Positions 1-32,475 of a stretch of 37,212 nucleotides of DNA are shown here, in pieces. The stretch is from Candidatus Campbellbacteria bacterium CG22_combo_CG10-13_8_21_14_all_43_18. GTDB lineage: Bacteria; Patescibacteriota; Minisyncoccia; Phycocordibacterales; GCA-002724975. Position 1 is the first letter of the stretch. The number at the start of each line of letters is the position of its first letter. The DNA is taken from positions 877 to 38,088 of the forward strand of contig PCTS01000034.1 of assembly GCA_002771565.1 (NCBI GenBank), read 5' to 3'. The translations under genes were made by a program, and so were the position numbers. Below the pieces are notes generated by a model, which was not told where the DNA came from, made no database searches, and saw only the letters and a list, made by a program, of their open reading frames with translations.

Positions 1-34
1 GGCCATTACTAGAACTCTTTTCCTGAGCCCGTTT

Positions 35-67
35 GAAGTTTTGAGAGGTCGGACCTCTCAAAACTTC
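35..67. repeat. REP-like palindromic element, copy 1 (inverted orientation relative to the other four copies)
   Basis: Perfect 33-nt palindrome GAAGTTTTGAGAGGTC-G-GACCTCTCAAAACTTC. The core 21-mer at 41..61 (TTGAGAGGTCGGACCTCTCAA) is the exact reverse complement of the 21-mer at 6680, 6918, 7185 and 7400; only the central base differs (G versus C). Confidence 0.85.
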
Positions 68-85
68 AATGTTCAATCTACCTAT

Positions 86-115
86 ATTATATCATACTGT
101 GCCACATTCTGTCAA
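86..115 (-). promoter_or_regulatory. Near-consensus sigma70-type promoter firing toward the left window edge
   Basis: The minus strand reads TTGACA (115..110), an 18-nt spacer, then TGATATAAT (94..86, extended -10). The downstream transcript would start with the REP hairpin (67..35). It then reaches AGGAAAAGAG plus an ATG at 6..4 (minus), which opens a gene that leaves the window. Confidence 0.55.
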
Positions 116-196
116 GCACAAAAACTCCCCCTAAAATCTTCTTAAAATACCTGTCCGCCTCGGGCGAAGCTCAAAAACAAGTTATAATAGATTTGT

Positions 197-4711: not shown

Positions 4712-6673
4712 ATGGGAAATATGATGCCCAAGGAACTGAAAGAGCTGAATCCTCCGCAAAAAGAAGCGACCGAGCACAAAAGCGGCCCGCTTCTGGTTTT
4801 GGCGGGAGCCGGAGCCGGAAAAACCAGGGTTATAACCTTGAGAATCTATAATCTTATAAAATCCGGCATTGCTCCCGATAAAATTCTCGCCATAACCTTC
4901 ACCAACAAAGCGGCCAAGGAGATGCGGGAAAGAATTTTTGCTCTCATCGGAAAAAATCCATATTCGGGCTATGGAGAAGAACGGGGCGAAAGGCCTTTTG
5001 TCAGCACTTTTCACTCTCTGGGAGCCCATATCCTTCGAGAAAATCACAAAGCCTTCGGCCTTTCAAAATATTTTAATATCTTTGACAAAAATGATTCTTT
5101 GAGGGCGGTCAAAGAATCTTTGAGAGAGGCGGGATATGACCCGAAGCAGATAAACCCGGGCAAGGTCCTCGCCGCCATATCGAGAGCCAAGGGAGATTTT
5201 ATTGGGGCCGAAGAATATAAAGAAATGGCAGGGGACGATTTTTGGGGCAAAGTCGTGGCCAAAACATGGCAAAAGTACGATGCCAGAATCAGGAGGGAGA
5301 ATGCTTTGGATTTTGGAGATCTTCTTCTGGAGACGGCCGGGCTTTTGGAAAAAGATAGGGCGGTCAGAAATTTCTATCAAGATAAATGGCATTATGTTCA
5401 CATTGACGAGTATCAGGACACGAACAAAGCGCAGTACAAAATCGCCAGCCTTCTTTCGGAGAAACACAAAAATATCTTTGTCGTCGGCGATGTTGACCAA
5501 AACATCTACAGCTGGCGAGGCGCAAGTGTTAGAAACATTCTCGGCTTTGAAAAAGATTTTCGAAATACCAAGACAATAAAGCTGGAGCAGAATTATCGTT
5601 CAACCAAAAGAATTATTGAGGCCTCAAATCTGATTATCAAAAAAAACAAGAATCGCTACGAAAAAAACCTTTTCACAAAAAACGAAGAGGGAGAAAAGAT
5701 AGGTTTTTTCGGCGCCTATGACGAAAAAGAGGAGGCTGGCTTTGTTTCAGGGGTTTCGGCCTTTCTTTTAAGGCGGGGGATTCGCCCAAGCGAAGTGGCC
5801 GTTTTTTACCGCGCAAATTTTCAATCCAGAAATTTGGAAGAGATTTTTTTGATGAAGGGAATTCCTTATCAGGTCCTGGGGACAAGATTTTTTGAAAGAA
5901 AAGAAGTCAAAGATGTCATTTCTTTTATTAGGGCCGCCCTAAACCCGGACAGCCTTTCCGACATAAAACGCGTGGTGAATGTCCCGCCACGGGGTATCGG
6001 CAAGGTAACTCTTATAAAAATGTTTTCAGGAAAAACCGACAGCCTCCCTCAAAAAACGAAGGAGAGGGTTGAGGATTTTTACAAACTTTTGAAGAAAATC
6101 AAAGAGAGAGCGCTTGAGGGAAAGCCTTCGGAGACCGTCAAATTCATCATTAGAGAATCAAATCTTCTGAAAAAATTAAAAGAGGGGACGGAAGAAGACC
6201 GCGAAAGGCTTGAAAACATCAAGGAGCTCGCAACTCTCGGAGCAAAATACGACCACCTTCTTCCGGAAGAGGGAATCCAAAAACTTTTGGAAGAAGCTTC
6301 TTTGGCAAGCGAAGCGGACAGCCTGGACCACAAAACTCGAAACAAAGACGGAGTAAAGCTTATGACAATCCACGCTTCCAAGGGGCTGGAATTTGATTAT
6401 GTTTTTGTAACCGGCATGGAGGAAGGTCTGTTTCCGCATAACGGCGAAGAAGAGAAAGAAGACGAGGAAGAGGAAAGAAGGCTTTTTTATGTCGCCCTGA
6501 CAAGAGCCAGAAAAAAAGTTTATCTGACTTACTCCAACCAAAGAACCATCTACGGGCACCGCAAGCCAAACTTGCCGTCAACATTCCTGACGGAGTTTGA
6601 TGAAGATATCCTGGAAGAGGAAAACTTCCCGAATGAAAACACCTCAAACGAAAACACCATCCACCTCGACTAA
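4712..6673 (+). CDS. pcrA: UvrD/PcrA/Rep family ATP-dependent DNA helicase
   Basis: 653 aa. SF1 helicase motifs present are AGAGAGKT (I), DEYQDTN (II), VGDVDQNIYSWRGA (III), QNYRST (IV), TIHASKGLEFDYVFV (V) and YVALTRARKKV (VI). Alternative in-frame ATGs lie at 4721 and 4724. Confidence 0.92.
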   Translation: MGNMMPKELKELNPPQKEATEHKSGPLLVLAGAGAGKTRVITLRIYNLIKSGIAPDKILAITFTNKAAKEMRERIFALIGKNPYSGYGEERGERPFVSTFHSLGAHILRENHKAFGLSKYFNIFDKNDSLRAVKESLREAGYDPKQINPGKVLAAISRAKGDFIGAEEYKEMAGDDFWGKVVAKTWQKYDARIRRENALDFGDLLLETAGLLEKDRAVRNFYQDKWHYVHIDEYQDTNKAQYKIASLLSEKHKNIFVVGDVDQNIYSWRGASVRNILGFEKDFRNTKTIKLEQNYRSTKRIIEASNLIIKKNKNRYEKNLFTKNEEGEKIGFFGAYDEKEEAGFVSGVSAFLLRRGIRPSEVAVFYRANFQSRNLEEIFLMKGIPYQVLGTRFFERKEVKDVISFIRAALNPDSLSDIKRVVNVPPRGIGKVTLIKMFSGKTDSLPQKTKERVEDFYKLLKKIKERALEGKPSETVKFIIRESNLLKKLKEGTEEDRERLENIKELATLGAKYDHLLPEEGIQKLLEEASLASEADSLDHKTRNKDGVKLMTIHASKGLEFDYVFVTGMEEGLFPHNGEEEKEDEEEERRLFYVALTRARKKVYLTYSNQRTIYGHRKPNLPSTFLTEFDEDILEEENFPNENTSNENTIHLD

Positions 6674-6678
6674 ACCCC

Positions 6679-6701
6679 ATTGAGAGGTCCGACCTCTCAA
6701 T
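6679..6701. repeat. REP-like palindromic element, copy 2
   Basis: ATTGAGAGGTCCGACCTCTCAAT, with the core 21-mer at 6680..6700. It lies 6 nt after the pcrA stop and 28 nt before the transposase ATG, and is followed by TTTAATAAAAATT. Confidence 0.9.
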
Positions 6702-6716
6702 TTAATAAAAATTAGG

Positions 6717-6722
6717 TATAAT
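6717..6722 (+). promoter_or_regulatory. -10 box (TATAAT) for a probably leaderless transposase mRNA
   Basis: A consensus TATAAT lies 6 nt upstream of the ATG at 6729. I found no Shine-Dalgarno sequence and no good -35 box. Confidence 0.4.
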
Positions 6723-6728
6723 AATTAT

Positions 6729-7403
6729 ATGAGAAGAAATCCGCTAGTAAATGATGAATATTATCACATCTACAATAGGGGTGTGGACAAGAGAAAAATA
6801 ACAATGGATAAGTTTGATTCTGATCGTTTTATAACAAGTCTTGTTGAATTCAATTCCATTGATCCGATTGGCAGTCTTTATAGACAAAATTTACAAATTA
6901 ACAAAGAAAAAAGAAATTTGAGAGGTCCGACCTCTCAAATAGTTGAGCTTGTTGCTTATTGCCTTAATCCAAATCACTATCACCTCATCCTTAAACAAAA
7001 AACTGATCGGGGTATAAGCGAATTTATGAAGAGACTTGGGGTCGGATACACTTTGTATTTTAACGAAAAATATAAGCGTACTGGCGTTTTGTTTCAAGGA
7101 AAATTTAAATCAGTACACATAAGCAGGGATGATTACCTAAATCATTTGAGTGTATATGTAAATTTAAATGATAAAAAACATAATTTGAGAGGTCCGACCT
7201 CTCAAATGGTGAGGTCAAGTTGGAGTGAATACTTGGGAAAACCTTGGCGTGATCAAAACATTTGTTCTGGAAAAGATATAATCTTAAATCAATTCGAGTC
7301 AGTGGGTGATTATAGGAAGTTTGCAAATGGATCTATTTTGGAGATTATTGATAGAGGAAGAAAAGAGGACGAAATTAAGGAATTAATACTTGAATGGATT
7401 TGA
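6729..7403 (+). CDS. IS200-like / REP-associated tyrosine transposase (RAYT, Y1 HUH family) carrying two in-frame REP copies
   Basis: 224 aa. It has the N-terminal YHIYNRGVDKR motif, the HUH motif NHYHLIL, FMKRLGVGYTLYFNEKYKRTGVLFQGKFKS, and the catalytic-Tyr region LSVYVNLN. The peptide NLRGPTSQ occurs twice and is encoded by the palindrome copies at 6918 and 7185. The stop TGA (7401..7403) lies inside copy 5. Confidence 0.85.
   Translation: MRRNPLVNDEYYHIYNRGVDKRKITMDKFDSDRFITSLVEFNSIDPIGSLYRQNLQINKEKRNLRGPTSQIVELVAYCLNPNHYHLILKQKTDRGISEFMKRLGVGYTLYFNEKYKRTGVLFQGKFKSVHISRDDYLNHLSVYVNLNDKKHNLRGPTSQMVRSSWSEYLGKPWRDQNICSGKDIILNQFESVGDYRKFANGSILEIIDRGRKEDEIKELILEWI
6916..6940. repeat. REP-like palindromic element, copy 3 (inside the transposase CDS, in frame)
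   Basis: ATTTGAGAGGTCCGACCTCTCAAAT, with the core at 6918..6938. It is read as N-L-R-G-P-T-S-Q-I. Confidence 0.9.
7183..7207. repeat. REP-like palindromic element, copy 4 (inside the transposase CDS, in frame)
   Basis: The same 25-mer, with the core at 7185..7205. It is read as N-L-R-G-P-T-S-Q-M and begins a few codons after the YVNLN tyrosine motif. Confidence 0.9.
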
Positions 7404-7422
7404 GAGGTCCGACCTCTCAAAT
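7398..7422. repeat. REP-like palindromic element, copy 5 (provides the transposase stop codon; sits just upstream of rsmA)
   Basis: The same 25-mer, with the core at 7400..7420. Here it is read in a different frame (att TGA), which terminates the ORF. Confidence 0.9.
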
Positions 7423-7426
7423 TATT

Positions 7427-8218
7427 ATGAGGGCTAAAAGGTCATTGGGGCAGAATTTTTTGACTTCAGAGAAGATTGTCGCTGACATTGTCGGGGCGGC
7501 TGGTTTGAGTCAAGACGATATTATTCTTGAGGTTGGGCCGGGGAGAGGAATTTTGACCGGGGGGCTCTTGAAAAATTCCAAGAAAATCATCGCCGTGGAA
7601 AAAGATGATGGGCTTTTTGATTTTTTGAGAGAAAAATTCGCCCAAGAAATAGAAAGTGAAAAATTGATTTTAATCCACGGAGATATCTTAGACCCCCGCT
7701 TAAACATTCCGCGCTTGAATAAGGGAGGGTACAAGCTCGTCTCCAACATTCCATACAACATCACCGGAAAAATCATCAGAAAATTCCTGTCCGCGAAAAA
7801 CCGGCCCGAGATGATGGTCCTCCTCCTCCAAAAAGAAGTGGCCGAAAGAATCACGGCAAAAGACGGCAAGGAAAGTCTTCTCTCCATAAGCGTCAAAGCT
7901 TACGGCAAACCGAAGTACATCAAAAAGGTTTCCAGAATATTCTTTTCCCCAAAACCCAAGGTTGATTCGGCCATTCTTTTGATAGACGAGATCAGCCAGA
8001 CTTTTTTCAAAAATTTCCCCGAGAAGGAATTTTTTACCTTGGTCAAAAGCGGCTTCGCTCATAAAAGAAAAAAACTTCTAAACAATCTGAAAGAGATTGG
8101 TCTTGAACCAAGCCGGATTTTTAAGGAAATGGGGCTGTCGGAAAATATTCGGGCCGAAAGACTCAAGCCCAAAGAATGGCTGGAGCTGGCTAAAAAGACG
8201 AAGTCCCGATATTCCTAA
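7427..8218 (+). CDS. rsmA: 16S rRNA (adenine1518/1519-N6)-dimethyltransferase RsmA/KsgA
   Basis: MRAKRSLGQNFL is a typical KsgA N-terminus. The SAM-binding motif EVGPGRGILT and the NIPYNIT motif are present. The ORF track starts at 7394, but those 11 codons are the REP palindrome, so I prefer the ATG at 7427. Confidence 0.9.
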   Translation: MRAKRSLGQNFLTSEKIVADIVGAAGLSQDDIILEVGPGRGILTGGLLKNSKKIIAVEKDDGLFDFLREKFAQEIESEKLILIHGDILDPRLNIPRLNKGGYKLVSNIPYNITGKIIRKFLSAKNRPEMMVLLLQKEVAERITAKDGKESLLSISVKAYGKPKYIKKVSRIFFSPKPKVDSAILLIDEISQTFFKNFPEKEFFTLVKSGFAHKRKKLLNNLKEIGLEPSRIFKEMGLSENIRAERLKPKEWLELAKKTKSRYS

Positions 8219-14714: not shown

Positions 14715-15122
14715 ATGGCAAGACACCAAGTACCGCAATTTATAGAAGTTGAAGACAAAATTTTCGGTCCGCTCTCCTTCAAGCAGTTTATTTATCTCTT
14801 GGGAGGTGCTGGTTTTACTTTTATCATGTTCCGGGTCTTTCCGCTCTTTTTGGCTCTGCTTTTTGCGGCGCCGGTCATCGCTCTTAGCCTTTCTTTGGCT
14901 TTTTATAAAATAAACAGCAAGCCTTTTATTTTTACGCTGGAAGCGGGATTTAAATATATAATGAATGCCAAGCTCTATATATGGAAAAAAGAGCCCAAAA
15001 AACAAATTCCCAAGACGCCGGAGGAAGTCGGAGCGGAAATTTTTTCCGTGCCAAAGTTGTCGGAAAGCAAGCTGGACGACCTGGCTTGGGGTTTGGACAT
15101 TAAAGAAAAAGTTGAAGAATAA
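14715..15122 (+). CDS. PrgI family protein (VirB3-like small membrane component of Gram-positive-type T4SS)
   Basis: 135 aa. The N-terminus HQVPQFIEVEDKIFGPLSFKQFIYLLGG is followed by two TM segments, matching the PrgI-family pattern. The gene lies immediately upstream of the VirB4-like genes. Confidence 0.65.
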   Translation: MARHQVPQFIEVEDKIFGPLSFKQFIYLLGGAGFTFIMFRVFPLFLALLFAAPVIALSLSLAFYKINSKPFIFTLEAGFKYIMNAKLYIWKKEPKKQIPKTPEEVGAEIFSVPKLSESKLDDLAWGLDIKEKVEE

Positions 15123-15775
15123 TGGCGGGAGAAAAACCAACACAAAATTTTTTGCCGATAAAAGAAATCCGCGATGGAGTGGTCGTTTTGAAAGACGGTT
15201 CCTTTAAAACCATTCTGCTGGCTTCTTCTTTGAATTTTGCCCTGAAGTCAAGAGACGAACAGAGCGCCATTCTTTTGCAATTCCAGAACTTTCTGAATTC
15301 TCTGGATTTCCCCGTTCAATTTTTTATCCAATCAAGAAGGTTGGACATCAGGCCCTATACCCAAACCTTGGAAGAAAGATATTCTGTCCAGAGAGACGAC
15401 CTGATGAAGCTTCAAATCAGAGAATATATATCTTTTGTCAAAGAGTTTACTTCAAACACCGACATTATGACAAAAAACTTTTTCATAGTTGTCGGATATC
15501 AGCCCCCCATTATCAATACCGACAAAGGCCTTCTCGGCCAGATTTTCAAAAAAAGAAGCGCCGCAGGAAAAACAACCGAGGATGATTTGTTCTACGAAAA
15601 CAACAGCCAGCTGGAGCAGAGAGTCGCGGTCGTCTCCCAGGGCCTGATTCGTTCCGGAGTCAGAGTCATAAAACTCGGGACGGGAGAATTGGTTGAATTA
15701 TTCTTCAAGATATTTAATCCGGGCGAACAAGGCCGGGCGGCTCGGATAACGAAAGAAACTTATGGGAATTCTTGA
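15122..15775 (+). CDS. VirB4 N-terminal-domain-like protein without an ATPase domain
   Basis: 217 aa. The start FLPIKEIRDGVVVLKDGSFKTILLASSLNFALKSRDEQSAILLQFQNFLNSL resembles the N-terminal region of Gram-positive VirB4/TraE-type ATPases. It has no Walker motifs. Its start overlaps the upstream stop (TAATG). Confidence 0.55.
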   Translation: MAGEKPTQNFLPIKEIRDGVVVLKDGSFKTILLASSLNFALKSRDEQSAILLQFQNFLNSLDFPVQFFIQSRRLDIRPYTQTLEERYSVQRDDLMKLQIREYISFVKEFTSNTDIMTKNFFIVVGYQPPIINTDKGLLGQIFKKRSAAGKTTEDDLFYENNSQLEQRVAVVSQGLIRSGVRVIKLGTGELVELFFKIFNPGEQGRAARITKETYGNS

Positions 15776-17567
15776 TTTTTTTAAAAAAAAGAAAGAGGAG
15801 GAACCCTTGACGCCGATTCTTCCGAAAGAGATATATGAATCCGGGGTTTTGGAGCTGAAAGATGTTATCGCGCCGAACGCTCTTAAAATAGGACCGCGGG
15901 AGCTTAATTTGGGAGACAAAATTGTCAGAACTTTTTTTGTCATGTCTTACCCGAGATTTCTTTCGGATAACTGGTTTGACCCCGTCATAAACCTGGATAG
16001 AGTTTTTGATGTCTCCATTTCAATAGAGCCGATAGAAACGGCCAATGTCTTGAGAAAATTTCAAAAAAAGGTGGCCGAAGTGGAAAGTCAGATAAGCGCC
16101 AGAGAGCAAAAGGGTTTGGTCAGAGACCCGATGCTTGACACGGCTTACAGAGATCTGGAGTCCTTGAGAGACCAGCTTCAGCAGGCCACGGAAAAACTTT
16201 TTGATGTCGGCCTCTATATTTCAATCTACGGAGAAACGAAGGACGAGTTGGACAAAATTGAAACGGAAATAAAGCAAATTCTGGAATCAAAACTTATTTA
16301 CATCAAACCGGCTCTCTTCCAGCAGGAACAAGGCTTTAAGAGCGTTATCCCTATCGGCAAAGACGAGCTTGATGTTAAAAACAAACTGAATTCTTCGCCT
16401 CTCTCCAGTGTCTTCCCTTTCATCTCCTTTGACCTAACCTCAAACAAAGGCGTTCTTTACGGTATAAACAGGCATAATTCCGGATTGGTTTTGTTTGACA
16501 GGTTCTCGCTTGAGAACTACAACTCGGTAACCTTCGCCACGGCCGGAGCGGGAAAATCGTTTGCCACAAAACTGGAGATACTCCGAACGCTGATGTTTGA
16601 CGCCGATGTCATCGTTATAGACCCGGAGTCGGAATATAAATATCTTTCCGAGGCAACCGGCGGCAGATTCTTTGATATTTCCCTCTCCTCCGGACACCAC
16701 ATTAACCCCTTTGACCTGCCTCCGGCCAGAAAAGACGAATCTCCGTCGGATGTCCTCCGGTCAAATATCATAAATTTGGTCGGTCTGTTCAGGTTGATGT
16801 TGGGAGGGCTTTCTCCGGAAGAAGACGCCACCGTGGACAGAGCCATCACGGAAACATACGCCTTAAAAGACATCACCCCGGAATCGGATTTTTCCAATGT
16901 GGAGCCGCCCCTTTTGTCCGATTTTGAACTCGTCCTTTCAGGAATGGAAGGAACGGAATCGTTAGTCCAAAGACTTTCAAAATATACCAAGGGAACCTGG
17001 TCGGGTTTCATCAACAGGCCGACCAATGTGGATATAAACAACAGATTCGTCGTCTTTTCCGTCAGAGATATGGAGGACGAACTCAAACCGGTAGCCATGT
17101 ACATCATCACCAACCATATTTGGAACACCGTCAGAAAAGAACTCAAGAAGAGGCTCCTGGTCATTGACGAGGCTTGGTGGATGATGAAATCCGAGGACAC
17201 GGCTTCTTTTATCTTTTCTCTGGCCAAGAGAGGCAGAAAATATTATCTTGGTCTTTCCACCATTACCCAGGATGTCGGGGACTTTCTGAAGTCCCAATAC
17301 GGACTGCCGATTATCACAAATTCCTCAATCCAACTTCTCTTGAAACAATCGCCTTCGTCCATTGATCAGGTTCAAAAAACCTTTAACCTGACGGAGGAAG
17401 AAAAATATCTCCTTTTGGAGTCGGCGGTTGGGGAGGGAATATTCTTCGCCGGCCTCAAGCATGTGGCCATAAAAATCATTCCCTCATACACGGAAGAGCA
17501 GATTATTACATCAGATCCCTCGCAATTATTAGCCATTCAAAAAGAAAGAGAAAAATTGGATGGATAA
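15762..17567 (+). CDS. VirB4/TrbE-like type IV secretion ATPase
   Basis: 601 aa. Walker A is ATAGAGKSFATK and Walker B is RLLVIDEAWWMM, and the C-terminal motif is GLSTITQD. The N-terminal domain carries RTFFVMSYPRFL. It overlaps the upstream gene by 14 nt. Confidence 0.85.
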   Translation: MGILDFFKKKKEEEPLTPILPKEIYESGVLELKDVIAPNALKIGPRELNLGDKIVRTFFVMSYPRFLSDNWFDPVINLDRVFDVSISIEPIETANVLRKFQKKVAEVESQISAREQKGLVRDPMLDTAYRDLESLRDQLQQATEKLFDVGLYISIYGETKDELDKIETEIKQILESKLIYIKPALFQQEQGFKSVIPIGKDELDVKNKLNSSPLSSVFPFISFDLTSNKGVLYGINRHNSGLVLFDRFSLENYNSVTFATAGAGKSFATKLEILRTLMFDADVIVIDPESEYKYLSEATGGRFFDISLSSGHHINPFDLPPARKDESPSDVLRSNIINLVGLFRLMLGGLSPEEDATVDRAITETYALKDITPESDFSNVEPPLLSDFELVLSGMEGTESLVQRLSKYTKGTWSGFINRPTNVDINNRFVVFSVRDMEDELKPVAMYIITNHIWNTVRKELKKRLLVIDEAWWMMKSEDTASFIFSLAKRGRKYYLGLSTITQDVGDFLKSQYGLPIITNSSIQLLLKQSPSSIDQVQKTFNLTEEEKYLLLESAVGEGIFFAGLKHVAIKIIPSYTEEQIITSDPSQLLAIQKEREKLDG

Positions 17568-28707: not shown

Positions 28708-28754
28708 ATTCTAAAAAATGTTTCCCCGATAAAAAATAATACATACCATAATAT

Positions 28755-28790
28755 ATACTATAATACATACTATAATACATACTATAATAT
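28755..28790. repeat. Tandem 12-bp repeat (ATACTATAATAC x3) in the ruvB-yebC spacer
   Basis: The copies lie at 28755..28766, 28767..28778 and 28779..28790 (last base differs), with degenerate copies on both sides (28738..28795). Each unit contains TATAAT on the plus strand. Confidence 0.9.
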
Positions 28791-28801
28791 ATATTTTTTA
28801 A

Positions 28802-29815
28802 TCAATCTTCTCTCCGCCTTATTTCTTTCAAACCGAGATGCTCATAGGCCCTTGGCGTGGCCGCCCTGCCTCGGGGAGTTCTCTCCAAAAGCCCTGTCTG
28901 AATCAGATACGGCTCATAAACCTCTTCTAAGGTTGAGCTTTCTTCCGAAAGAGCGGTGGAGAGAGTGTTAAGACCGACTGGCCCTCCGCCGAATTTGCCG
29001 ATAATCGTTTCAAGAATTTTTCTGTCGTGGGAAGAAAGACCGAGGCGATCAATTTCCAAAAGTTCCAAAGCCTCTTTTATATTTTCTTTGCTCATCGGCC
29101 TTCTGTGGACTTGAGCGAAATCGCGGCATCTCTTCAGATAATAATTGGCCGTTCTTGGAGTAAATCGGCTTCTTTGAGCGATTTCTTTCAAAGCATCTTT
29201 TCCGGCCTTGACCCGGAGTATTTTGGCCGAGCGCTCCAGTATTTTTTCAATTTCTTCTTCCGAATAAAAATTCAGTCTATGAACCCCGCCGGAGAACCTT
29301 GAGCGCAAGGGAGAAGAAACGGAAGCTATGCGAGTCGTGGCTCCGACCATGGTAAAAGGAGGGAGGTCCAACTGCAGGACTCTGGCCGACGGCCCCTTGC
29401 CGATAATAATGTCCAAGACTCCCGACTCCATGGCCGGATATAAAATTTCTTCTATGACCTTGTTCAGGCGGTGGATCTCGTCAATAAAAAGAATGTCCCC
29501 GGGGGAGAGATTTGTTAAAATGGAAGCCAGGTCGCCGACCCTCTCTATGGCCGGCCCGGAAGTGATTTTAATTCCCGCGCCGGCCTCTTTAGCCACAAGA
29601 GTGGCCAGAGTTGTCTTACCGAGACCGGGAGGGCCGTAAAAAAGGAGATGTTCCGGCGATTGGTTCCTTTCCTTTGCCGCCCTTAGAAGTATTTGGACAT
29701 TTTTTCTGACCCCCTCCTGTCCGACATAATCGGCCCACTTCTCCGGACGGAGTGTTTTGTCCAGAGATTTTTCAGAGAGAGCCCCGTTCCCTTTCTTGAA
29801 ACTATCACTTGACAT
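28802..29815 (-). CDS. ruvB: Holliday junction branch migration helicase RuvB
   Basis: 337 aa. Walker A is GPPGLGKTTLA, Walker B is ILFIDEIHRL, sensor motifs are present, and the C-terminal winged-helix region contains LGLSSHDRKIL. Confidence 0.93.
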   Translation of the reverse strand: MSSDSFKKGNGALSEKSLDKTLRPEKWADYVGQEGVRKNVQILLRAAKERNQSPEHLLFYGPPGLGKTTLATLVAKEAGAGIKITSGPAIERVGDLASILTNLSPGDILFIDEIHRLNKVIEEILYPAMESGVLDIIIGKGPSARVLQLDLPPFTMVGATTRIASVSSPLRSRFSGGVHRLNFYSEEEIEKILERSAKILRVKAGKDALKEIAQRSRFTPRTANYYLKRCRDFAQVHRRPMSKENIKEALELLEIDRLGLSSHDRKILETIIGKFGGGPVGLNTLSTALSEESSTLEEVYEPYLIQTGLLERTPRGRAATPRAYEHLGLKEIRRRED

Positions 29816-29843: not shown

Positions 29844-30030
29844 CGAAAGTAAGTTTTTTAATAGAGTCCGGAAATCTCTAAGCATCCGAGCGTCTTTACA
29901 AGGATTTTTTTGCTTTTCCCCTTCTGGGTAAATTGCTGAATTTCTCCTTAGTCTTCACGCTTAACTTCACTCCGCTGAAGTCTTGCTTAGAGATTTCCGG
30001 ACTCTATTTATTTTACTTTATTCTTTTGCC
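29844..30030 (+). ncRNA. Candidate small RNA of about 185 nt (promoter + 25-bp closing stem + U-rich tail); identity unknown
   Basis: The predicted TSS is about 7 nt after the -10 box at 29837. The transcript would fold into the 25-bp stem, with an internal hairpin ACTTCA-CTCCGC-TGAAGT. It would end in TATTTTACTTTATTCTTTT (30009..30027). There is no ORF with a start codon and RBS inside. Confidence 0.3.
29860..30008. repeat. 149-nt element bounded by perfect 25-bp inverted repeats
   Basis: AATAGAGTCCGGAAATCTCTAAGCA (29860..29884) is the exact reverse complement of 29984..30008. The arms enclose 99 nt. The element lies in the pilB-ruvB intergenic region. Confidence 0.9.
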
Positions 30031-31769: not shown

Positions 31770-31902
31770 TCTTCAAATCATAACTCTTTTGGCCGTAACC
31801 CTCAACAAAAGAGCGTCTTTGGGCGGATGTCGGGCCTCTGCCCAAGGAGGTGGTCTTATCAAGGGCGTCTAAGTGTAAAAATGGATGAGGTTATTCAAGT
31901 GG

Positions 31903-31931
31903 TTGACTATTGGTTTGTTTTGTAGTATTAT
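31903..31931 (+). promoter_or_regulatory. Putative promoter of the GC-rich lipoprotein gene
   Basis: TTGACT (31903..31908), a 17-nt spacer, then TATTAT (31926..31931). Confidence 0.4.
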
Positions 31932-31989
31932 TCACACAGAAACAGAAAAAAACTCTGGATTGACCGCCCATCATACGAGGAGAACCGCA

Positions 31990-32403
31990 ATGAAGCGCTT
32001 GATGAAATGCTTGTTTTTGTTCCCCCCGCTTCTTCTTGCTCTCGGCTCGTGCTACGCGAGTCTGGGGGTAAGGAGTGGCCTCGGTATCTCCATTGTTATG
32101 GAAAGGGCCGGGGAGTACGCCAATGTTTTTGTCACAAACCAGTTTGCCGGCAACAAACTGGTTTGTGAGCAGTTAACCGCGGACGAAGCCCCTCGGTGCG
32201 TCTATCGCCCACCGGGAGGGTTTACCGCAACCTCCGTCTGCGGAGAGATTTACATCCAGAGCCGCCGGATCGGCTCCGGAGAAATCGTCGGTTTTACTAG
32301 GTTTAACTACTGCGACTGGTATCGCGGTAGCGGGTTTGGCCGGTATGATTTCCCGGTCTACCGCATCCGGGAAATCAGTCCGGTGGTGCCGGCCGGCCGG
32401 TAG
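31990..32403 (+). CDS. Small Cys-containing lipoprotein of unknown function, in a GC-rich islet
   Basis: I prefer the ATG at 31990 (MKRLMKCLFLFPPLLLALGSC, a lipobox-like LGSC), which has an AGGAG Shine-Dalgarno 8 nt upstream. The ORF-track start at 31885 adds 35 unlikely residues. Two 60-nt samples (32041..32100 and 32161..32220) contain 35 and 39 G+C. The gene is followed by a strong terminator. Confidence 0.65.
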   Translation: MKRLMKCLFLFPPLLLALGSCYASLGVRSGLGISIVMERAGEYANVFVTNQFAGNKLVCEQLTADEAPRCVYRPPGGFTATSVCGEIYIQSRRIGSGEIVGFTRFNYCDWYRGSGFGRYDFPVYRIREISPVVPAGR

Positions 32404-32420: not shown

Positions 32421-32475
32421 GCCGCCGCGAGGCCCCCGAGGGCCTCGCGGCGGCTCTTTCTTTTTCTCCTCTTTT
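32421..32475 (+). terminator. Strong rho-independent terminator
   Basis: Perfect 15-bp GC stem GCCGCCGCGAGGCCC (32421..32435) / GGGCCTCGCGGCGGC (32440..32454) with loop CCGA, followed by TCTTTCTTTTTCTCCTCTTTTTC. Confidence 0.85.

Follow-up and report, generated by a model that had tools for sequence, protein, structure and literature searches.

Why should a transposase-family gene carry, in frame within its own coding sequence, two further copies of the palindrome that flanks it? We address this question in a 37,212-nt stretch of contig PCTS01000034.1 from Candidatus Campbellbacteria bacterium CG22_combo_CG10-13_8_21_14_all_43_18 (hereafter the window, with positions counted from its first letter), where a Y1 gene resembling those of the REP-associated tyrosine transposases (RAYTs; REP, repetitive extragenic palindrome) lies at 6729–7403. 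A first-pass annotation, made from the sequence alone, had offered three options: the enzyme tolerates hairpin-encoded peptides, the gene is a recently self-targeted and possibly inactivated copy, or the hairpins are autoregulatory binding sites. Our analysis favors, with a probability of roughly 0.6, the reading that gene and palindromes together form a REPtron-like RAYT/REP unit of ~750 nt, belonging to a branch of the HUH/Y1 (TnpA-REP/RAYT) family that extends across the Patescibacteria. The anatomy of the unit is conserved, its palindromes evolve in concert through compensatory change and under a reading-frame constraint, the whole unit is an insertion, and solo and doublet copies of such palindromes are dispersed elsewhere.

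Four Palindromes Frame and Interrupt a RAYT-Like Gene

The 21-mer TTGAGAGGTCCGACCTCTCAA matches the plus strand exactly at 6680–6700, 6918–6938, 7185–7205, and 7400–7420. These are the four same-orientation copies listed at first pass (6680, 6918, 7185, and 7400), the last of which contains the stop codon. A fifth copy lies in flipped orientation (central G) at 41–61; the earlier list omits it, yet the words "copy 5" in that annotation suggest that its author had seen this copy. The 21-mer had 0 matches in 100 dinucleotide-preserving shuffles with up to three mismatches allowed. The perfect palindromes, which we annotate without strand, extend beyond the 21-mer. The upstream one (U) spans 23 nt (6679–6701, core 6680–6700) with a 10-bp stem and the loop CCG. 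The two internal, in-frame ones (I1, 6916–6940, and I2, 7183–7207) and the downstream one (D, 7398–7422) are each the 25-nt palindrome ATTTGAGAGGTCCGACCTCTCAAAT, and the dispersed, flipped, intergenic copy reaches 37 nt (33–69), with the 17-bp stem TTGAAGTTTTGAGAGGTCGGACCTCTCAAAACTTCAA. In single-stranded DNA (ssDNA), the predicted fold of each copy is a hairpin of 11 bp closing a loop of 3 nt (about −9.4 kcal/mol, z = −7.4); for the 33–69 copy the stem is 17 bp (−17 kcal/mol). Elsewhere in the window, perfect palindromes with a stem of 8 bp or more number four: three have 8-bp stems, a kind of which shuffled sequences have 0–4 by chance, and the fourth is a 15-bp hairpin at 32421–32454.

The first copy stands 28 nt ahead of the ATG. 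I1 and I2 are read in one common frame as NLRGPTSQ, at residues 63–70 (N63-LRGPTSQ70) and 152–159 (N152-LRGPTSQ159), and leave the 224-residue open reading frame (ORF) intact; D holds the stop codon TGA (7401–7403). The ORF itself reproduces these elements of the earlier description.

The gene (plus strand) is assigned to the Y1/HUH transposase family both by Pfam and by fold. Pfam Y1_Tnp matches residues 72–145, between both internal palindromes (E = 1.3e-7, 32 bits against a cut-off of 23). The HUH motif H83-Y84-H85 (NHYHLIL) is encoded at 6975–6983 and the catalytic tyrosine Y143 (YVNLN) at 7155–7157, both on the plus strand; in the form YVNLN(D/N), the tyrosine motif has no P. An AlphaFold2 model built from 118 homologues (mean pLDDT, the predicted local distance difference test score, 85) has as its best Foldseek match in the PDB 4ER8, the Escherichia coli REP-associated tyrosine transposase with a REP hairpin bound, followed by the TnpA proteins of IS608 and ISDra2 (4ER8, 2VJV, and 2XM3 at probability 1.00). 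A PDB sequence search with the family profile returned spurious RNase A tandem constructs only. With the Y1_Tnp fold, the HUH metal-binding motif, and one catalytic tyrosine, the protein belongs to the HUH/Y1 superfamily, and the first-pass call of a RAYT-like HUH/Y1 enzyme, made on the NHYHLIL and YVNLN motifs, stands.

Both hairpin-encoded peptides lie outside the catalytic core. I1 lies 12 residues ahead of H83, in a loop preceding strand beta2 that the model renders as flexible (residues 51–70, pLDDT below 50 to 58), and I2 begins 9 residues past Y143, after the tyrosine helix (pLDDT ~78). The peptides are evidently tolerated, as the first option had it: H83, H85, and Y143 are all kept on alignment and invariant in the 118 sequences, and the exact 224-residue protein is found on 22 contigs from European Nucleotide Archive (ENA), Joint Genome Institute (JGI), and Logan assemblies of several samples, with the same neighbors wherever these were displayed.

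The Four-Site Layout Is Conserved Among Homologues

Homologues number 4823 at E ≤ 1e-3, the best of them 50–59% identical, with lengths close to that of the query. We examined 80 homologous loci, out of more than 590, from species-representative genomes, nearly all labelled as Patescibacteria-group metagenome-assembled genomes (MAGs). Their proteins show identities of only 43–56%. Site occupancy was scored as the best palindrome within intervals set by the protein alignment, with a threshold of at least 9 of 11 stem positions paired. U, typically ~26–37 nt before the start codon, is occupied in 83% of the 77 loci in which it could be scored. Occupancy is 62% for I1 (at about +185–200 nt), 55% for I2 (about +450–490 nt), and 72% for D (at or just past the stop codon) across all 80 loci, and only 2.5% of control intervals in the same genes reach the threshold. 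All four sites are occupied in 21 loci, three in 26, and two in 24. Position is also held within the gene. The center of I2 falls exactly 40 nt past the first base of the tyrosine codon in 19/26 loci with a good palindrome, and that of I1 44 nt upstream of the N(HYH) codon in 10/30, the window's own unit being among them in both cases; the central base of the internal copies is almost always at codon position 2.

The central triplet switches between copies (CCG/CGG, CGA/TCG, GAA/TTC). When flipping would create TGA or TAA, only the sense triplet (TCA, TTA) is found in internal copies, whereas U and D of the same locus are often flipped (L027, L052, L048, L008, L044, and L067). Sense-only internal copies beside often-flipped flanking ones show that the ORF is under purifying selection and that the process acting on the DNA itself is blind to strand.

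At both internal positions the homologues encode peptides that are similar yet different (LGGPTPKL, LSGPTSKS, LGSPTSKL, LRRPTSQ) and that match within each protein; the family consensus includes the hairpin peptide LGGxTxKLV. The first-pass annotation had reckoned with a conserved protein feature should the 21-mer be absent elsewhere and homologues encode the same peptide at the same positions. The 21-mer is present elsewhere (see below), and the peptides, at the same positions indeed, are analogous rather than identical and match the palindrome of their own locus; what is conserved is therefore a DNA feature and not merely a protein motif. A pure protein motif is in fact ruled out: the noncoding U and D have the same sequence, and synonymous positions are perfectly complementary. 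Nor does recent self-targeting or inactivation hold up, with catalytic residues intact and locus-specific palindromes at conserved positions and in conserved frame in most of the 80 homologues at 43–56% identity. The internal copies occupy pre-existing variable loops; palindrome-free loci keep a loop at the internal site that is ~4 residues shorter rather than 7–8, and decayed internal copies also exist among the 80 loci.

Palindromes of One Locus Evolve in Concert

Across 71 loci we count 28 distinct inner stems. Two copies from one locus have the same inner stem in 70% of pairs, and two copies from different loci in 4%. When 150 copies are aligned, each of the 11 stem pairs varies on both sides, and pairing holds in 91.6% of cells, compared with 70% after shuffling and 25–47% with a slid partner. 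Because these copies were pre-selected for palindromy, the covariation count gauges compensatory variety rather than whether pairing exists; support free of this bias, for pairing and for concerted evolution, comes from the control-interval comparison and from within- vs. between-locus identity. The consensus of the 150 copies, nACTTGGAnGTnnnACnTCCAAGTn, is itself a perfect palindrome, with the extended form 5′-CCAC..GTGG-3′. The outer stem is usually ACTTGG..CCAAGT, and the variant in the window, ATTTGAGAGG..CCTCTCAAAT, is less common. That stems vary freely while pairing is kept suggests that structure is read, not sequence.

Some loci appear to be caught between hairpin types. L033 has perfect palindromes of three types, L020 has one type at U and I2 and another at I1 and D, and the internal copies of L066 combine a left arm of one type with a right arm of the type found at its own U and D. 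These mixed (L020, L033) and apparently half-converted (L066) loci suggest that hairpins are replaced site by site.

Several divergent Y1 paralogues occur per MAG, each with its own palindrome (L034/L053, L038/L060, L030/L079, and L025/L065). This bears on the idea that the palindrome is bound or cleaved as double-stranded DNA (dsDNA) by a different dimeric protein, for example a restriction-modification, repair, or transcription factor, and that its link with the Y1 gene is incidental or an assembly artefact. A palindrome perfect but for a single, freely flipping central base is what a dyad-symmetric site would look like. The association is nevertheless specific to the individual paralogue, and the stems change freely with their pairing intact; we rate the idea as highly improbable and close to refuted. 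An artefact is excluded, since protein and layout recur on 22 contigs that were assembled independently and again in 80 other genomes.

The Unit Entered as a Block and Behaves as a Resident Gene

In the window, the unit occupies the interval between a UvrD/PcrA-type helicase gene (pcrA, 4712–6673, plus strand; Pfam UvrD-helicase and UvrD_C), which lies outside the element and marks its left edge, and rsmA/ksgA (7427–8218, plus strand; RrnaAD). The 753 nt between the pcrA stop codon (6671–6673) and the rsmA ATG (6674–7426, plus strand) are taken up almost entirely by U, a putatively leaderless Y1 gene with I1 and I2, and D, leaving spare ends of 5–6 nt on one side and 4 nt on the other, where D ends just ahead of the rsmA ATG. 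In two relatives (L127 and L128), pcrA (57% amino acid identity) is followed directly by rsmA (54%), with an ATGA overlap or a 1-nt spacer and neither Y1 gene nor palindrome. Since pcrA abuts rsmA there, the hairpin–gene–hairpin block is an insertion; these empty-site relatives are distant (54–57% amino acid identity) and locate the site, not the exact ends of the unit or its target. Nucleotide similarity among paralogous or non-syntenic units starts and stops at approximately the U and D hairpins.

These features would also fit a plain autonomous IS200-like insertion sequence (IS), with U and D as its end hairpins, I1 and I2 as functionless self-insertion scars in two hot spots, and nothing domesticated or regulated. 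Such an element would be inserted whole between pcrA and rsmA, would be compact (~750 nt) with a hairpin at each extremity and its own promoter, and would show unit-to-unit similarity that stops at the hairpins; the several divergent paralogues per MAG and the decayed internal copies also accord with it. We nonetheless consider it unlikely. Near-identical copies were found neither inside any one of the 80 genomes nor from one genome to another. Syntenic orthologous pairs (L014/L057, L065/L066, and L076/L077) hold their positions over ~77% nucleotide divergence, and the unit was found on every population contig examined: among 13 contigs read with the exact pcrA protein, it was present wherever neighbors were displayed (6 places), and no excision or deletion variants in the population were found via that protein. 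Re-insertion into hot spots would be expected to add length, yet the register of the internal copies is constant (+40 nt relative to the tyrosine codon, same codon phase), and the solo hairpins are dispersed, unlike IS200 ends. The unit came in as a block and now acts as a resident gene, which is how RAYTs behave (Bertels et al. 2017, PMC5581495).

Two observations concern the flanking genes. The automatic rsmA start, ATG 7394, translates the D palindrome (MDLRGPTSQII...). The true start is probably ATG 7427, from whose residue 1 homologues align, and the annotated N terminus would be a repeat artefact. Inside pcrA, 6440–6538 gives the sole Rfam signal of the interval 6400–7700, a sub-threshold match (50.6 bits, with a gathering threshold of 65.2) to RF03531, "C. 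difficile sRNA included into helicase gene," which most likely reflects conserved helicase coding sequence.

The Upstream Palindrome as a Putative Promoter

A TATAAT −10-like hexamer (6717–6722, plus strand) lies 6 nt upstream of the ATG. Across the family this arrangement recurs: the hexamer ends 6–10 nt before the ATG in 44/53 loci with a good U (19% in controls) and exactly 6 nt before it in 24, a spacing that would make the mRNA leaderless. The hexamer is preceded by TG in 29 loci. In 21 loci the last base of the U hairpin is 2 nt ahead of the −10, so that its terminal ..AAGTG provides the TG, and in 20 loci the left arm of U provides a TTGGNN −35 at 17-nt spacing. These spacings suggest that much of the family uses the U palindrome as its core promoter. 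At the other end of the gene, D usually begins 0–5 nt past the stop codon or overlaps it.

Could the palindromes be mainly cis-regulatory, kept by selection on expression, with mobility secondary or extinct? U would be an operator or promoter, I1 and I2 roadblocks, mRNA hairpins, or antisense terminators, and D a terminator or 3′ stabilizer. The −35 and extended −10 elements associated with U and the position of D against the stop codon agree with such roles, as do the T-runs that follow each of I1 and I2 on the minus strand of the window, making intrinsic-terminator-like antisense sites of them. Classical REPs stabilize mRNA and modulate translation, according to literature cited in PMC6006769. 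We hold this account to be distinctly unlikely. The T-runs are not general, relatives having RVHQ codons there, and the window's U is displaced from the −35. Copies in unrelated genes, doublets, and joint stem switches at all four sites are all left unexplained. Antisense terminators were also rejected as a family trait in their own right: the T-runs stem from the Lys-rich codons of the window, and relatives are without A-rich codons upstream, which makes these sites probably a peculiarity of one AT-rich gene.

Solo and Doublet Palindromes Are Dispersed

Copies in the window's organism were counted in metagenome and ENA contigs; the exact 21-mer had no match in the genome-contig collection, which does not include the source species. 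Beyond the 33–69 palindrome, further copies in the same organism lie just past stop codons on overlapping or related contigs, among them L087 and L121; the known dispersed copies are all extragenic, and they are few. The extended 37-nt version recurs on contigs L083, L085, and L087. The palindrome thus flanks the gene and is dispersed in the same organism (41–61, L087, L121), which bears out the first-pass proposal of a cognate REP-like element.

For a relative with its own palindrome (L023), a scan of the whole collection gave 13 exact copies in its MAG, of which five are at the gene, three close by, and five on other contigs, and 12 in a second MAG, both lower bounds because only exact matches were counted and the MAGs are incomplete. 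The L023-type palindrome CTTGGAGGCTWAGCCTCCAAG lies in frame within the genes for BipA, PGI, Dus, IF-2, TsaD, the HHH domain of DnaE, and a PMT_2 protein in other Patescibacteria MAGs (L091, positions 839 and 2055; L098, 2159; L101, 4065; L115, 6127; L116, 3474; L118, 2873; and L114, 5959). These in-gene copies translate as LGGLASK, or as LEAKPPS in the other orientation and phase, and are frequently adjacent doublets with opposite loop orientations, formally like REPINs. Comparison with orthologues reveals clean insertions of 7 amino acids in Dus and of 11 amino acids net in each of DnaE and BipA; the TsaD comparison (L115/L116) gave no clean indel. A tandem copy on L081 was first taken as intragenic and then dismissed: it lies just past a stop codon, on a contig that, judged by its sequence, probably belongs to another organism.

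The 33–69 copy also marks a breakpoint of a presence/absence polymorphism. An 825-nt segment with an STIV_B116-like gene and two flanking palindromes is present in L121 (480–1460) and in L087; L124 (2950–3110) lacks the segment and keeps a single palindrome. Window positions 1–120 correspond to L121 1341–1460, and the crossover interval, at most 34 nt, includes the hairpin. Because the left flanks are ~90% similar over ~225 nt, homologous recombination stays an alternative explanation. The window itself begins 40 nt ahead of the 41–61 repeat, which suggests that assemblies break there; for MAG assembly in general, contigs break or recombine at these repeats.

A Model for the Unit and What Weighs Against It

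On the REPtron-like reading, the enzyme would recognize one short perfect palindrome as an ssDNA hairpin, by analogy with 4ER8 and IS608, and would cleave and religate DNA at that point in the manner of the RAYT and IS608 enzymes of known structure. I1 and I2 would descend from REPs that were inserted in frame long ago into loops able to tolerate them. Existing hairpins may then be the preferred substrate for enzyme-mediated or gene-conversion replacement, such that "a hairpin begets a hairpin," and this preference would explain both the persistence of I1 and I2 and their continued match with U and D. Binding of the enzyme at U, and possibly also at I1, I2, and D, could yield autoregulation, the third of the original options, to which the overlap of U with the promoter in most relatives lends indirect support, and the solo palindromes scattered at low copy number would be a REP-like nonautonomous element.

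Several observations weigh against this reading. Units are at most 79% identical in nucleotide sequence, and no near-identical duplicates occur among the 80 loci; together with the presence of the unit on all 13 pcrA contigs (6 places displayed), this leaves present-day mobility unproven. Loops without a palindrome are just ~4 residues shorter, so an insertion origin for I1 and I2 is not cleanly shown. Binding and cutting of the palindrome by the protein are inferred by analogy, and a perfect palindrome with a freely flipping central base would also suit a dimeric dsDNA binder. The palindromes are perfect and without the 5′ GT[AG]G foot of canonical REPs, dispersed copies number ~10 per MAG, far fewer than classical REPs, and the protein scores 26.1 bits against NCBIfam NF047646 (REP_Tyr_transpos), below the cut-off of 80. 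Finally, the promoter argument for the window rests on its relatives: the overlap of U with the promoter is weaker here, where U lies 13 nt farther upstream than usual and provides neither the −35 nor the TG.

A bolder version of the REPtron-like reading is tempting, though we doubt it. One 21–25-nt palindrome would serve as promoter, two segments of the enzyme, gene end, and mobile repeat at once, and a site-specific, in-situ copy-and-paste by the Y1 enzyme, "hairpin homing," would keep the copies in register. If so, every switch of hairpin type would rewrite two loops beside the catalytic core, physically coupling enzyme and substrate in their evolution. Hairpin homing would then be a new mechanism of concerted evolution, and essential Patescibacteria proteins would regularly acquire in-frame peptides from mini-palindromes.

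The family is in any event a minimal and regular system, with ~750 nt, perfect palindromes, four fixed sites, and at least 28 natural hairpin types with matching enzymes, and so offers a natural specificity series for Y1 hairpin recognition and repeat homogenization. In very small genomes with scant intergenic space, such repeats are carried inside essential genes. For annotation of the candidate phyla radiation (CPR), this means that LGGxTSK-type and LEAKPPS-type inserts are DNA repeats and not protein motifs.

Other Features of the Window

A GC-rich perfect palindrome at 32421–32454, with the 15-bp stem GCCGCCGCGAGGCCC CCGA GGGCCTCGCGGCGGC, directly follows the ORF at 31885–32403 and is probably a terminator unrelated to the 21-mer family. 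At 29860–30008, a 149-nt element with a perfect 25-bp terminal stem (AATAGAGTCCGGAAATCTCTAAGCA ... TGCTTAGAGATTTCCGGACTCTATT) lies between the next gene and a minus-strand ORF (28802–29815) whose product we take, by the look of the DNA, to be RuvB-like. Its predicted RNA fold is stable (−67.5 kcal/mol, z = −10.5) and has no Rfam match at the gathering threshold, and it could be an uncharacterized structured RNA or a small mobile element. About five tandem 12-nt units (ATAATACATACT/ATAATATATACT) occupy 28736–28793, in an AT-rich spacer with divergent ORFs on either side. The Rfam scan of the window as a whole likewise gave no match at the gathering threshold, and no tRNAs were found in the window.

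Downstream of rsmA, at ~14715–17400, gene calls on L121 include PrgI-like, TraC-like, and TraG/VirB4-type P-loop ATPase genes; ahead of them lie a TSP3_bac repeat protein and large ORFs with no annotation. From these gene calls, the cluster appears to be a type IV secretion or conjugation-like module.

Comparison with Known Systems

The nearest published counterparts are TnpA-REP subclasses 2.4 and 2.8, in which in-frame REPs lie inside tnpA-REP genes (Quentin et al. 2018, BMC Genomics 19:475, PMC6006769). Some members of subclass 2.8, which have the HYH motif, carry a REP insertion, and Quentin et al. place the in-gene insertions in peripheral loops, with cases mainly from Cyanobacteria and Bacteroidetes (PMC6006769). 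Intragenic REPs in other genes had been reported as well (Di Nocera et al. 2013, PMC3733652). The first-pass belief that intragenic in-frame REPs were undescribed therefore falls, and our finding extends and sharpens a published idea. With subclasses 2.4 and 2.8 the present family shares a class-2-like Y1 enzyme, flanking REPs, and frame-preserving in-gene copies, and with 2.8, as far as described features allow the likeness, the HYH form of the HUH motif. It differs in its Patescibacteria hosts, in its two fixed sites outside the HUH..Y core, in its perfect 21–25-nt palindromes without a foot, and in a tyrosine motif of the form Y---N without P. The literature searched yielded nothing relevant on RAYTs or REPs in CPR/Patescibacteria. 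Measured against that literature, the novelties are a family in Patescibacteria, a pair of fixed sites outside HUH..Y, and perfect palindromes without a foot, as are the promoter role of U and quantitative, family-wide concerted evolution.

Nearly all work on REP/RAYT systems has dealt with Proteobacteria, where the repeats are extragenic and abundant. The comparison with 4ER8 and with the Pseudomonas REPIN-RAYT systems reveals a best fold match (to 4ER8), cognate flanking hairpins, and one gene per hairpin family. Each paralogue has its own hairpin population, the locus is vertically stable without identical duplicates, and inverted doublets resemble REPINs (Nunvar 2010; Bertels & Rainey 2011; Bertels 2017, PMC5581495). 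As expected of a RAYT or REPtron, the flanking repeat also occurs elsewhere in the genome, and the gene has few divergent copies at a stable locus. In contrast, there are ~10 copies and not hundreds, and many copies in other genomes are intragenic where REPs are extragenic. The hairpins are not the imperfect, GT[AG]G-footed kind, having neither the GTAG foot nor stem bulges; tens to hundreds of mostly extragenic repeats are missing, and the protein is not a member of NF047646, its equivalog score falling far under the cut-off.

With the IS200/IS605 elements (IS608 and ISDra2 TnpA), the unit has in common an HUH/Y1 enzyme, a compact single gene, end hairpins without terminal inverted repeats, and presence or absence of the whole element as a unit, here between pcrA and rsmA. 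IS200 likewise employs hairpins to regulate its own expression. Yet the enzyme is longer (224 residues, with a C-terminal domain), and U and D are identical perfect palindromes, whereas IS ends are distinct imperfect left and right hairpins. Solo hairpins are dispersed, and multiple near-identical copies are lacking. The fixed tetra- or pentanucleotide target of IS200/IS605 also has no visible equivalent, with no conserved flank seen outside the hairpins.

The in-gene copies, finally, recall intragenic REPs and the Rickettsia palindromic elements (RPEs), with which they share in-frame placement in loops of essential proteins, frequent dimers, and a preference for replication, repair, and translation genes. 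RPEs are ~100–150 bp long and have no known transposase, as cited in PMC3733652. The elements described here are 21–45 nt long, and each type is tied to one Y1 gene that itself hosts two copies.

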